Shown: positions 5,378 to 9,081, counted from the stretch's first letter. The stretch is DNA of 10,407 nucleotides from Fibrobacterota bacterium (GCA_043753995.1 JAYUVP010000073.1:1-10407), one strand, 5' to 3'. Made by a program: numbers and translations. The notes: generated by a model not told the origin, from the letters alone.

Positions 5378-5498
5378 GGGGCGGGCGCCGATTTCCAGCC
5401 TTGGCCGCCTGTATTCCCGCCGCATGGAGACAGGCTTTTTAAGCTAGTCCATTGGGCTAAAAAGTCAGGCTACCCTCTGGGGCGCGTGAGGAAAGGCC
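5373..5498 (-). promoter_or_regulatory. Candidate structured 5' leader of purL-purQ (consecutive hairpins plus an anti-SD helix)
   Basis: Complementary segments read by eye: CCTC/GAGG, CTTTTTAGC/GCTTAAAAAG, GCCTGT/ACAGGC, GGCGG/CCGCC, and CTCC-A-TG-C-GGCGGG with CCCGCC-C-CA-GGAG. I do not recognise a known riboswitch consensus. Confidence 0.35.
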
Positions 5499-5807
5499 AA
5501 ATGTACATCGAGAGCGATTCACCTTAGTCAAAAAACACCCGATCCAAGGGCAATTTGAAATGGGTCCCCAGGCCGGTCCTTCTGTTTACCATTACTACCC
5601 ATTATTATTGGAAATAAAATCCCGTCTTCCAGGGTACTGCTTTTTAAATAGGTTTTTTTGTTTAAATAATGACAAAAATGAGCGAAATCAAAAACGGGCT
5701 CGACTCCATTACGTTTACTCCATTTAATCTTTTAGAAAGACAATGAGATCAGGAGCGAGCACCCGTCACCTGCGAAGAATTGGCTCATAATTAAATCCCC
5801 CTAGGAT

Positions 5808-5821
5808 GCGGCCGAAGCCGC
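5808..5821 (-). terminator. C(UUCG)G tetraloop hairpin just downstream of the lipoprotein stop codon; possible 3'-end protection or pause element
   Basis: Minus strand GCGGC-TTCG-GCCGC begins 18 nt after the TGA at 5842-5840. No adjacent U-tract, so it is not a canonical intrinsic terminator. Confidence 0.35.
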
Positions 5822-5839
5822 CGCTTTGTTCGCGTCGAC

Positions 5840-8821
5840 TCACATGCGCTTGCGGATATACAGCTCGGGAGCAGCGCTGCCCACGGCTTCCCGTGAATTG
5901 AATAAAACCAGGGATTTGCTGTCCGTGTTCACCGCCTTCAAGGCGAAAGTCACGGAGGTTTTACCCGCCAACTTTTGGGCCGTCACATAATCGCTCACGC
6001 TGATGGTAAACCATTCGGCTTTGCTCGAAGAGACTTCAATAGTATCCAGCGCCGAGGCTGTATCGCTCGGAAAATTGGAATTCTTCAAAGCCGTCTCCGT
6101 CCAGGACGTGTCTGAAACTGGATAAACCGCCACCTTGGCCGTCACCGTGTCGGTAGCGCTTAATGCTCCATAAAGCCTAAGCTGGGCAAAGAGCACACTG
6201 TCGACCTTGGCCAGGGAAAAATTGATCAAAGACTTATAGATATTGCCTTTGTCAGCCGTGCCCGAACCGTGAACAATCAAGGTGTTCGTCTTAGGATAGT
6301 TGGTGTTCGCGTATTTCGTTCCGTCACGGGTCAGTCCGTCCTTGGACGGGCTGACATTGCGGTACTTGGTCGTGTCCTGAACATAAACCGTAAGCACTTG
6401 ATTGCAGGTCACGCCGGCTCGGTCCGTGGCCACTGCGAAATAGGTCGTATAGCCTTGCACGGTGTCTTTGACCGCCGTGGTTCTCACGGTATAGGGCAAG
6501 GTCGTTTTCGTAGCTATGCTGTCTAGCGAAGTCGAGAAGAACACGCTGACTACGTCGGAGGCGCCATCCAAATCGGTAACGCTGGCGGTCATGAACAGGC
6601 TATCCCCTTCATTCATCACGGTTCCGTCCACTAAACCCGAAACAGTCAATGTGGGCAAGAAATCACTGATGGAATCGACTTTGGGAATGTTGAATTTGGC
6701 CGTGTCGGTCTTGGCTGTATCGCCGCCATTCATGGCCAGACCGATATAGGTATTCGTCCCCAACGTCGGCAGGCTGACCTTGCCCAGCAAGGCCCAATTG
6801 GAACCCGTATTCGATAAATAGGCCGCCACAATCTTGCCTTTGCGAATAAGCCTTACACCGTAATTAGTCGAGGTCGGAGCGGTAAATTTTGTGGCGACGG
6901 AAGCACCATAGGTAGCCCTAGCCAAAAATTGGGCCGAACGATCTGCTCCCAAGCTGAGAAAGGCCATACGGCTTCCCACCCCGAGGGAATCACGAATCAT
7001 CAGACCTCTCAAATCATTCGCATTGATGTCCGGAATGGTTAGCATCTGGGCGGAGATGCCGCCGTCGCCGCTGAGTGTCTTATAGGTGAATTGCATTTCG
7101 TCGGCTTTACCTTCGGACAAAGGCGTTTTACTCGTCATATTCCAACTGGTTTGATGCGTTATGGAGTCCGTGACTTTCTTTAGCTTTCCATTCCAACCTT
7201 TTGAGCCGATATAAGCTTCTTTCCATGGAGCCAAGACCGTGGAATCGGTAAAGACGGTCACCGCCGCCGAGGTGTCGATCAAACCACCCCCGTCATAAGC
7301 GCGAACGGTCAAGACTTTCGTGCCGGCCGTGGCAGCGGTCCAATTGTAGAGATACGGAAATGCGATCACCTTGCCCAGTCGAGTGGAACCACTGTAAAAG
7401 ACCACGCTATCTAACCCTTCGTCGTCACTCACCGTCGCTCGAATCATGAGATTCGTGCCCCCGAAGGCCGAGCAGTCTACGGGAAAGGAAATGGCTGCCA
7501 CGGGTACGGAATTCGTGCCTCCAAAGCCGGCGGCAACTTTGCCGGTGGCCATGAGGGTGGCCGCCGCATTGGCCGTGGCTGAACCCAATGCCTTGCCTTG
7601 ATAGGTGACGGCGGGATTGGAAAAGTACGGGAGTATGGAAGTCGCGGCAGTCGCCATCTGCGTCCCATACATCGTGGTGTCACCTTTCATTTTCAAGGTG
7701 AAGGCATAGGGCATTTTCCCCACGCCCTTTAGCTTGGCTTTGGTTGCTGTCTTGTTGTCAGTGAGCAAACCCAAATTGCAGCCTAGCGCTTTGGCCAAAC
7801 CGTATTGGCCTAGTTCCAAGGCTCTTCGGGAGACGACGTTGTAGGCGTAATTTGAGAAGCTGTCCACGGCCACTTTCATTTGATAAGAGGTGCCACTGAC
7901 GCTTCCGGCCAAACTATCGACTATCAGCAAAACGATATCCGCGCTATGCGCCGAGCGCAGGGTTTGCGCCGTGTCTAGTTTGCCGTCGCCGCTGGTTTTG
8001 AGCCGCACCAACTCGCTGTCCGAAGAATGATGCTCGGTATAGGTGATTTTGGCGGTATGAGCGACATGTAAGGCCAGGTCTACTTTGCTGTTGGTTAAGA
8101 GATTATTGGTTTCCGCGATGGCGGCTGTGATCTTGGCCTCCAGCAGGCTATCGCTGCCCGCTCCCGTCCCAGCGGAGGCGGTATAGAGGACTTGCAGCTC
8201 AAGAGTGCGCGTCGCCTGGGTCAGCGAGGTCTTGGCCAAAGCCAATTCTGGGGGAGTCGGACCGGACATTTCCGGGGTTTCCACCTCGGTGGCCAGGGGA
8301 AGTGTCAGGTCATTCAGTTGGCTCACACGATATTGGCCACGCGCGTCGCAGCTCACGCGAAAATTGCCGAGCGAACCGAGCCGGACAATACCACTCAAGA
8401 TATGCTGGGACAAAACCACCAGGAAGGTGCCGTCTTCATATCCCGCGACTTTGCCCGAAGCCACCACTCCGCCGGACTCCAGCCCCTTCACATCGTCCAC
8501 GGTAGCCATGAAGTCGGCCTCGACGAAAAAATTGAACGCGATATGGGAACCAGGATAATGAAGCGGGCTACGAGTGGGTTCGAAAAATACCGGATTCAGC
8601 GTGCCTGTCCCACTCTTTTCAACACCGCTCTCCCAAGTCCAGTCCTTAGATTCCGGCACCGTTGCCCCACCCAGAAAAAGGGGTACGGCATCGTCAAAAA
8701 CGGGCTTGCCTGCCGCCGGCGTTCCTTTGGAGTTGAATAGACATGCCGAAAGGGAGCCTGCTAATCCGGCGGCAATAAGGAAGTGCGAAATGTGAAGGTT
8801 TTTTAGAAAGCGCCCGTACAT
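5840..8821 (-). CDS. Multidomain lipoprotein, 993 aa: signal peptide II, prodomain-like region, degenerate reprolysin/M12B-like metzincin domain, Ig-like (Big_7-like), ConA/DUF1349-like beta-sandwich, Ig-like, C-terminal DNRLRE/CBM96-like domain
   Basis: Basic N-region, hydrophobic H-region and lipobox LSA-C (Cys27, codon 8743-8741). SD AGGGAG lies 5 nt before the ATG. Metzincin-like landmarks: LELQVLYT, LRSAHSADIVLLI, GTQMA, PYFSNPAVTYQG. Ig-like repeats: ATVSDDEGLDSVVFY...PYLYNW...LTVRAYDGGG and ASVTDLDG...VVSVFF...PYTV...AVATDRAG. ConA-like: FTYKTLSGDGGISA...GLMIRDSL...YIGLA. CBM96-like: ANTNY...INFSL...AQLRLYG...WTET...VSDYV...FNSREA...PEL. Confidence 0.85.
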   Translation of the reverse strand: MYGRFLKNLHISHFLIAAGLAGSLSACLFNSKGTPAAGKPVFDDAVPLFLGGATVPESKDWTWESGVEKSGTGTLNPVFFEPTRSPLHYPGSHIAFNFFVEADFMATVDDVKGLESGGVVASGKVAGYEDGTFLVVLSQHILSGIVRLGSLGNFRVSCDARGQYRVSQLNDLTLPLATEVETPEMSGPTPPELALAKTSLTQATRTLELQVLYTASAGTGAGSDSLLEAKITAAIAETNNLLTNSKVDLALHVAHTAKITYTEHHSSDSELVRLKTSGDGKLDTAQTLRSAHSADIVLLIVDSLAGSVSGTSYQMKVAVDSFSNYAYNVVSRRALELGQYGLAKALGCNLGLLTDNKTATKAKLKGVGKMPYAFTLKMKGDTTMYGTQMATAATSILPYFSNPAVTYQGKALGSATANAAATLMATGKVAAGFGGTNSVPVAAISFPVDCSAFGGTNLMIRATVSDDEGLDSVVFYSGSTRLGKVIAFPYLYNWTAATAGTKVLTVRAYDGGGLIDTSAAVTVFTDSTVLAPWKEAYIGSKGWNGKLKKVTDSITHQTSWNMTSKTPLSEGKADEMQFTYKTLSGDGGISAQMLTIPDINANDLRGLMIRDSLGVGSRMAFLSLGADRSAQFLARATYGASVATKFTAPTSTNYGVRLIRKGKIVAAYLSNTGSNWALLGKVSLPTLGTNTYIGLAMNGGDTAKTDTAKFNIPKVDSISDFLPTLTVSGLVDGTVMNEGDSLFMTASVTDLDGASDVVSVFFSTSLDSIATKTTLPYTVRTTAVKDTVQGYTTYFAVATDRAGVTCNQVLTVYVQDTTKYRNVSPSKDGLTRDGTKYANTNYPKTNTLIVHGSGTADKGNIYKSLINFSLAKVDSVLFAQLRLYGALSATDTVTAKVAVYPVSDTSWTETALKNSNFPSDTASALDTIEVSSSKAEWFTISVSDYVTAQKLAGKTSVTFALKAVNTDSKSLVLFNSREAVGSAAPELYIRKRM

Positions 8822-9004
8822 GCGGACTCCCTGGATAAACAGCTATTCAGAAGCCGCGTTATGCGTTATCGATACTGGACCTGGCGAGGAATGGCGTCAA
8901 AGAGTTTGGCGGTTAAATCGCAGAACTGCTGAATATGCTCCAGCGAATCATGAAAGGACTCTAAATGCGCTTTAGGAAACTAATTTGCCTGTTTCGGTCT
9001 TTTC

Positions 9005-9081
9005 GTCCTCGTAGCTCAGCTGGATAGAGCAGCGGTTTCCTAAACCGTTGGCCGGCAGTTCAATTCTGCCCGAGGACACCA
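9005..9081 (+). tRNA. tRNA-Arg, anticodon CCT (reads AGG), 77 nt with encoded CCA
   Basis: Acceptor stem GTCCTCG/CGAGGAC + A-CCA; D arm GCTC-AGCTGGATA-GAGC; anticodon arm GCGGT-TT-CCT-AA-ACCGT (anticodon 9039-9041); T arm GGCAG-TTCAATT-CTGCC. Confidence 0.98.

Follow-up and report, generated by a model that had tools for sequence, protein, structure and literature searches.

A predicted lipoprotein of a Fibrobacterota bacterium with a metzincin domain that has lost its zinc-binding motif

Metzincins without catalytic activity have been studied extensively in animals, in which the non-proteolytic ADAMs have organising roles at synapses and on sperm surfaces. In ADAM22, ADAM23, ADAM11, ADAM2 and others the zinc ligands and the catalytic Glu are replaced and the Met-turn is kept; the ADAM22 motif, for example, reads QSLAHNIGIISD in Table 2 of a review whose section on M12 pseudopeptidases names only eukaryotic ones (PMC11266112). 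The protein described here carries the same kind of lesion in a bacterium. It is encoded at 5840..8821 on the minus strand of a 10,407-nucleotide stretch of DNA from a Fibrobacterota bacterium (GCA_043753995.1, JAYUVP010000073.1:1-10407), the whole of which is called the window below. Its product, P0001, is a predicted multidomain lipoprotein of 993 codons plus stop, and its metzincin domain has lost all three zinc-binding His and the catalytic Glu. No bacterial reprolysin- or ADAM-like pseudopeptidase is described in the open-access papers and bioRxiv preprints searched, a search that did not cover the peptidase databases.

The nearest named relatives of the domain are bacterial enzymes. Mep72 of Pseudomonas aeruginosa (PA2783, NF052434) is a secreted metzincin followed by carbohydrate-binding domains; it is released in biofilms, and its processing is affected by alginate (PMC4334185). 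Mep72 is active, processes itself, is co-expressed with the inhibitor BamI and leaves the cell by type II secretion, whereas in P0001 the zinc site is gone, there is no bamI-like neighbour, a lipobox is present and the C-terminal modules are others. CpaA of Acinetobacter (PDB 6o38) is the best match of the catalytic domain both by profile and by structure, but its HExxH is intact, its N-terminal part consists of repeat domains and not of a prodomain, it has a dedicated chaperone, and identity is 12–15%.

Other systems resemble parts of the protein. The pairing of a prodomain with a catalytic domain is found in human ADAM17 (9o54, 8snl) and in profragilysin-3 (7pnd) and MPII (4on1) of Bacteroides fragilis, which match a predicted model of P0001 over 284–323 residues at Z 19.4–21.7 with about 12% identity; these, however, are active or activatable zinc enzymes. 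The non-proteolytic ADAMs, in contrast to the query, are eukaryotic single-pass membrane proteins with disintegrin, Cys-rich and EGF domains. P0001 is instead a predicted lipoprotein with Ig-like domains and a carbohydrate-binding module, there is no close sequence relationship between the two, and their losses are independent. Three proteins, P0009, P0010 and P0013, are colinear with P0001 over its full length and differ in keeping the zinc motif.

A metzincin homologue without its zinc motif

The domain occupies residues 195–437 (7511..8239, minus strand), where profile comparison, phmmer and predicted structure all find a catalytic domain of the reprolysin/Mep72/CpaA kind. A phmmer search of 1.84 billion representatives returned 5227 matches at E ≤ 1e-3, with 1910 proteins at E ≤ 1e-10, and the best match is the active P0009 (E 6e-40, 44% identity). 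The only named sequence family to match the domain is the NCBIfam Mep72 model, which covers residues 208–437 at E 2.1e-12; with 46.4 bits against a cut-off of 645 and profile positions 3–235 of 573, P0001 is not a member of the NF052434 equivalog itself. Alignment A2, which comprises 92 domains (the query and 91 homologues), gives a profile that finds Acinetobacter CpaA first (5.9e-9), followed by snake-venom metalloproteinases, ADAMs, serralysins and fragilysin. Reprolysin_3 is matched by 91 of the 92 A2 sequences, and the query is without any family match at E ≤ 1e-3. On these sequence comparisons the region belongs, beyond doubt, among the homologues of reprolysin/Mep72/CpaA-type metzincins. 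An earlier note on this DNA, made from the sequence alone, had called the domain reprolysin- or M12B-like: the kinship with metzincins stands, while the nearest named relatives are of the Mep72/CpaA type and not M12B proper. In the Pfam comparison that the note proposed, the reprolysin models stay below threshold.

The predicted structure points the same way. An AlphaFold2 model of residues 195–440 (predicted local distance difference test, pLDDT, 88.6; predicted template-modelling score, pTM, 0.87) retrieves CpaA (6o38) with Foldseek at E 1.9e-10 and a template-modelling score of 0.69, then adamalysins and ADAMs, including the inactive ADAM22. In a VIA comparison of a second model, of residues 28–440, with 48,161 PDB representatives, CpaA reaches Z 25.0 with a root-mean-square deviation of 1.9 Å over 202 residues, and adamalysins and ADAMs match the model at Z 15–16. 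The modelled region appears to adopt the metzincin alpha/beta fold, as the earlier note had expected of AlphaFold and Foldseek.

The degenerate zinc-binding motif, KALGCNLGLLTD, lies at residues 344–355 (7757..7792, minus strand) and replaces HExxHxxGxxHD. Translation confirms the earlier reading of this segment as K-A-L-G-C-N-L-G-L-L-T-D. The three His have become K344 (AAA), C348 (TGC) and T354 (ACT), and the catalytic Glu has become A345 (GCG). Each former His codon is two bases away from CAY, in line with the multi-base differences already remarked on, and GCG is one base from GAG. Since all three zinc-binding His and the catalytic Glu are replaced, the module, with neither zinc ligands nor general base, is predicted to hold no catalytic zinc and to hydrolyse no peptides.

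The scaffold around the motif is retained, as had been claimed. The Met-turn methionine M389 (7655..7657, minus strand) stands in a column that is Met in 97% of the 91 homologues, and F400-S401-N402-P403 of the PYFSNP segment is kept; two residues past M389, Thr is found where 90% of homologues have Tyr (Y391T). The consensus of A2 (LAHELGHNxGxxHD ... RTxMAY ... YFSNP) matches the family consensus given in the earlier note. In this alignment 43 columns are at least 80% conserved among the 91 homologues, and four of them are catalytic. These four are 100% conserved, HExxHxxGxxH being present in 91/91 homologues, and the query keeps 0/4 of them against 30/39 of the other conserved columns. The active-site loss is far beyond chance. 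P0001 has the Met-turn methionine of metzincins and lacks their zinc-binding consensus HExxHxxGxxH(D); the loss of ligands and general base on a preserved scaffold is the pattern that defines a pseudopeptidase.

The domain also carries a His-rich patch at 8026–8068 (minus strand), where residues 252–265, HVAHTAKITYTEHH, include H252, H255, H264 and H265. The patch occurs in the query and its orthologue P0008 and in no other member of the subfamily, and it may be a new surface metal site or a product of chance.

An orthologue, the family and the subfamily

P0008 is the sole other member of the 90% cluster and comes from an independent assembly. It has 993 residues, of which 905/993 are identical to the query (91%) with 0 gaps, so that the two proteins are 9% diverged, and its motif reads KAIGRNLGLLTD. 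The loss is common to both and is therefore older than their split. The position of the former second His is Cys in the query and Arg in P0008, variation of the kind expected at residue 348 if metal is no longer bound, and the two-base distance of the zinc-site codons from His suggests that the change is old. The proposal that all close homologues might keep HExxH, raised in the earlier note among the findings that would overturn its reading, does not hold, since P0008, the closest of them, has the same loss. A sequencing or assembly error was considered as well and is ruled out by the independent assembly of the orthologue together with the two-base codon differences.

The 88 differences between the query and P0008 are distributed unevenly. 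The signal peptide has 13/27 (48.1%), the prodomain-like region 13/167 (7.8%), the metzincin-like domain 12/243 (4.9%, the lowest), the first Big_7 domain 5/90 (5.6%), the middle domain 23/189 (12.2%), the second Big_7 domain 11/100 (11.0%) and CBM96 11/177 (6.2%); signal peptide aside, the middle domain is the fastest-evolving. The 4.9% of the metzincin-like domain compares with 7.8% for the mature protein and with 63/723, or 8.7%, for the remainder of the mature protein. Across 993 codons there is no stop and no indel in the two lineages. Under neutrality 3.5 nonsense changes would be expected beside 88 missense changes, and the probability of finding none is 0.029. The replacements are conservative, with a mean BLOSUM62 score of +0.11 versus −0.42 for random missense changes. 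The shared loss, the gap-free frame and the least-diverged domain argue against both a sequencing error and a decaying pseudogene, as the earlier note had argued.

Across the wider family the motif is nearly always intact. HExxHxxGxxH is kept in 5/5 word-index matches and in 15/15 domains of related genomes (14/14 if L010, from the unpublished genome G021, is set aside), a count from which L013 is left out, its match stopping short of the motif. It is kept also in 81/81 metagenome domains that cover the site, a set biased by a search pattern built on the motif itself; the 82nd match is a fragment ending before the motif. The unbiased best representatives, drawn from the best 150 of the 5227 phmmer matches, keep the strict motif in 142/149 cases. 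Four (4/149) are fully degenerate (P0017, P0020, P0058 and P0131), and the other non-strict representatives are P0023, with Glu replaced by Gln, P0041, with Asp at the third His, and P0078, in which only the Gly has changed, to Ala. Pseudo-metzincins seem to arise repeatedly in bacteria. The degenerate P0017 and P0020 share the CBM96 architecture, and the two others differ in theirs (Big_5; Calx-beta plus Big_3_5).

The full-length relatives of P0001 include active and dead members. The active P0009, P0010 and P0013 have 988–1008 residues and an intact motif, HE[IL]GHN[ML]GCQHD, and they are colinear with the query from the lipobox to the C-terminus at 36–40% identity. Pfam finds Reprolysin_3/4/5, Big_7 and CBM96 in them, and unlike the query they exceed the Reprolysin_3/4/5 thresholds. 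The dead P0017 (938 residues, N-terminally incomplete) and P0020 (1200 residues, with an insertion) are likewise colinear with the query, have CBM96 and Big_7, and are 30–34% identical to it. Their motifs read QFVAKTMGCAAD and ILVGKNMGAATD, respectively, and the Met-turn Met is also lost in both.

Trees of this subfamily differ between the two halves of the protein. A tree of the N-terminal half places the four dead sequences together with 94/96 support, on long branches that carry a risk of artefact. A tree of the C-terminal part (551 columns) joins the query pair with the active P0009 (96/93), and a single dead clade is rejected there by the approximately unbiased (AU) test (p = 0.018). The N-terminal data do not significantly reject the grouping of the query with P0009 (AU p = 0.087). 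The evidence leans towards at least two losses within the subfamily.

The subfamily of lipobox–prodomain–metzincin–Big_7–CBM96 proteins is rare. A scan of metagenomes with the protein brought up no relative, and the scan with alignment A1 gave only distant, active homologues. A search of the phylum through 296 genomes found nothing closer than 30–33% identity, and this in differently built proteins of one sister genus. Genome contigs scanned with P0009 gave distant matches only, and a search for shorter fragments gave none. A 7-sequence profile run against the word index matched the middle and Ig domains only in part and missed the known subfamily members. The genome of P0001 itself (97% complete, 356 contigs), searched with the protein, gave neither a further copy of the domain nor a PF13688 or PF13583 match above cut-off. 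With no active paralogue in the genome, it is unlikely that P0001 is a dead subunit partnering one in the same cell.

Architecture and genomic setting

The order of elements in P0001 is lipobox, prodomain, metzincin, Big_7, DUF1349-like domain, Big_7 and CBM96. The 993-codon frame, ribosome-binding site and lipobox are as the earlier note gave them: the reading frame is open, and a Shine-Dalgarno-like GGGAG at 8827..8831 (minus strand, read directly) stands 5 nt from the ATG at 8821. The signal peptide (8741..8821, minus strand) ends ...AGSLSAC, with L-S-A-C at residues 24–27 (8741–8752). A bacterial lipoprotein signal peptide ends in the lipobox [LVI][ASTVI][GAS]C, and the N-terminus fits this rule, judged by motif only, with Cys27 as the predicted lipidation site. 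The pattern [L/I]-[S/A]-A-C is common to P0008, P0009, P0010, P0013 and P0020, which are 5/6 of the other subfamily members; the N-terminus of P0017 is missing, so a lipobox cannot be seen there.

Residues 28–194 (8240..8740, minus strand) make up a prodomain-like region, all-beta in the AlphaFold2 model and by structure matches, with a low-confidence linker. The model of residues 28–440 (pLDDT 85.8, pTM 0.87) consists of an all-beta N-terminal domain, this linker and the metzincin domain. As a pair, prodomain and catalytic domain match the ADAM17 prodomain and metalloproteinase at Z 21.7 with 299 residues aligned, profragilysin-3 at Z 20.8 with 295 aligned, and B. fragilis MPII at Z 19.7. In the model the 170 N-terminal residues resemble a prodomain of the ADAM/fragilysin type, and the two domains together have the appearance of a zymogen. 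Pfam gives no significant match to either the prodomain-like or the middle domain.

The C-terminal half comprises two Ig-like domains, a middle domain between them and a terminal carbohydrate-binding module. The first Big_7 bacterial Ig-like domain spans residues 438–527 (7241..7510, minus strand; Pfam PF17957, E 7.3e-14, 52.6 bits), with its best stretch at 440–506 and a match to PDB 9kvu at 3.3e-10. The beta-rich middle domain follows at residues 528–716 (6674..7240, minus strand) and is tentatively DUF1349-like: the subfamily profile matches a region of P0158, a carrier of PF07081, at an hhalign probability of 96%. A second Big_7-like Ig domain is placed at residues 717–816 (6374..6673, minus strand), with boundaries that are inferred. 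Pfam gives 2 Big_7 stretches, the second of which is colinear with the 720–795 Big_7 matches in P0009, P0010 and P0013. The CBM96, or DNRLRE, module occupies residues 817–993 (5843..6373, minus strand). It matches Pfam PF24517 at E 2.2e-25 with 89.8 bits against a threshold of 26, over profile positions 2–163 of 164; NCBIfam DNRLRE matches at E 8e-19 (68.3 bits against 34) and PDB 8wab at 1.3e-7. For the CBM96 founding member the ligand is alginate, bound at internal chains, with Lys, Arg and Tyr as groove residues (PMC9971899).

The gene has gmk, an EamA transporter gene, purQ and purL on one side and a CBS/CorC gene (corC) on the other. A tRNA-Arg(CCT) gene at 9005–9081 (plus strand) lies inside the 575-bp spacer between the start of the gene and corC. 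The nearest purL genes (65–69% identity) belong to metagenome-assembled genomes (MAGs) of Fibrobacteria, and the order purL-purQ-gmk is kept in related MAGs of this class. No homologue of the P0001 gene lies upstream of purL in those related Fibrobacteria MAGs (L127–L132), and in one related MAG corC stands 2.2 kb upstream of purL with no homologue in between. The gene, absent at the same place in related MAGs, is therefore lineage-specific at that place, and it may have been inserted beside the tRNA-Arg gene. Its composition gives no signal of horizontal transfer, the guanine-plus-cytosine (GC) content of 0.52–0.57 being like that of the neighbours, and promoter and terminator scans gave counts close to shuffled expectation.

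Some further features of the window were observed. The 410-bp spacer between the stop of the gene and purL (5426–5839) has a lower GC content, about 0.49, and a weak GC-rich hairpin directly past the stop, with no Rfam match. The purL frame (fused, with a PurS-like N-terminus, 1005 residues) overlaps the purQ-like GATase_5 frame by 41 bases (2355–2395); its listed start is TTG, and the real start may differ.

The sequence occurs in sequencing runs of sediment metagenomes. Two DNA runs from a single study contain 97% of the sampled words; they may represent the source sample itself, hence not be independent. Contigs from the runs match about 5726–7227 identically and give no coverage across the motif region. 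A third run has just one unrelated 36-base piece, and no RNA run is listed among those that contain the sequence. The organism is an uncultured Fibrobacteria-like sediment bacterium.

What the dead module may do

The reading preferred here, and a probable one, is that P0001 is a lipid-anchored multidomain protein with a maintained dead prodomain–metzincin module, serving at the cell surface as a non-catalytic binder or tether. The lipoprotein would be exported and lipid-anchored behind its lipobox, with a complete zymogen module in the style of ADAMs and fragilysin kept as a folded, non-catalytic part. The two Ig-like Big_7 domains would act as spacers toward the terminal CBM96, which may bind acidic polysaccharide or matrix and make the protein a surface binder or tether, and the dead protease module would form its structural or binding base. 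The earlier note's suggestion that the domain may have been repurposed for binding or scaffolding is of the same kind. With the lipid anchor attached at the prodomain end, cleavage of the prodomain in active relatives would free the enzyme from the cell; the dead form, unable to process itself, would stay anchored. Rather less likely is an extended version, in which an active member releases itself into the matrix targeted by CBM96, loss of the site makes a permanent zymogen-like tether, and this switch has occurred more than once, in the query lineage and in P0017/P0020.

Binding could also reside in the dead module as a specific protein-binding device, which as decoy or receptor would bind either a protease inhibitor or a substrate of active relatives that neighbouring cells make, as in the pairing of ADAM22 with LGI1. 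The model resembles the inactive ADAM22 ectodomain, M12 pseudopeptidases act through protein binding (PMC11266112), and the two orthologues differ least in the metzincin module. Such a device is nonetheless improbable: the genes nearby (tRNA-Arg, corC, purL) include no partner gene, an active paralogue was not found in the genome, and the cleft would be occupied if the prodomain stays bound, as the zymogen-like model suggests.

Several points weigh against the preferred reading of P0001 as a maintained surface binder or tether. The Pfam reprolysin models match residues 204–323 only and remain below their gathering thresholds (Reprolysin_5, 13.8 bits versus 27; Reprolysin_3, 13.5 versus 22.4). 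Active homologues supplied the alignments behind the AlphaFold2 models, which back the fold by homology only and can neither show an empty metal site nor prove that this sequence folds. The adhesin or tether mechanism, with its putative partner and ligand, is a matter of inference. Maintenance is judged from the comparison of proteins, with only two sequences of the lineage in the collections searched, and an open reading frame is poor evidence about the domain as such, since a stop or frameshift in it would take the downstream domains with it. In a Fisher test the domain's lower divergence does not reach significance (p = 0.07), although the domain is clearly not evolving faster. Nine of the 39 otherwise conserved positions (9/39) are altered, including H286Q, G375T and Y391T, and a long stem branch, of 1.1–1.5 changes per site, leads to the lineage. 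Finally, while active members resemble one another most in the metzincin domain (53–62% identity), comparison of the query with them gives this domain only 38–44%, no better than the other domains.

Part of this is also what would be seen if P0001 were a recently inactivated protease gene drifting towards a pseudogene, with its frame still open for lack of time or for the sake of the downstream domains. The one orthologue known is close (91%), the domain has lost the extra conservation that catalytic domains show among active members, scaffold positions are altered, the branch is long, the Fisher test falls short of significance, and no RNA run is listed as containing the sequence. Against such drift, which is a low-probability account, the loss is older than the split between two lineages now 88 residues apart, and neither stop nor indel has accumulated since, the absence of stops having the low neutral probability given above. 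A free-running segment would be expected to show the highest divergence, yet the dead domain shows the lowest, and it has no in-frame deletions. The two-base differences at the zinc-site codons point to an old change, and P0017 and P0020 are dead yet have CBM96 intact (P0017 being N-terminally incomplete), which suggests that dead versions persist for long. The divergence pattern fits a domain that may have been freed of catalytic constraint and may have kept a structural or binding one.

Very improbable is a domain that is still an enzyme by way of other residues, such as a new site formed by H252, H255, H264 and H265, or by a non-metal mechanism, for although these four lineage-specific His, identical in P0008, fall within 14 residues and the substrate-cleft scaffold (NLG, Met-turn, FSNP) is retained, position 345 is Ala with no replacement general base, position 348 varies between Cys in the query and Arg in P0008 and so is not a ligand, the domain has no HExxH or comparable motif elsewhere, the searched literature offers no precedent, and the patch falls, by the secondary structure of the model only, on the second strand and the next loop and not on the active-site helix.

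Pseudoenzymes are common, and with 4/149 other family representatives dead, a bacterial pseudo-metzincin is plausible to a specialist and not startling. The query, P0008 and at least two other dead members stand beside active members of the same architecture, a natural comparison for the role of a protease fold that does not cut. The finding also bears on annotation: the domain escapes the Pfam reprolysin models, and such proteins are missed, or are miscalled as proteases if found by similarity, a risk that concerns metagenome surveys of polysaccharide- and protein-degrading Fibrobacterota. If the less likely extended version, with its repeated switch from released protease to anchored adhesin, is true, the loss of catalysis would be a recurrent, selected route to new bacterial surface adhesins.

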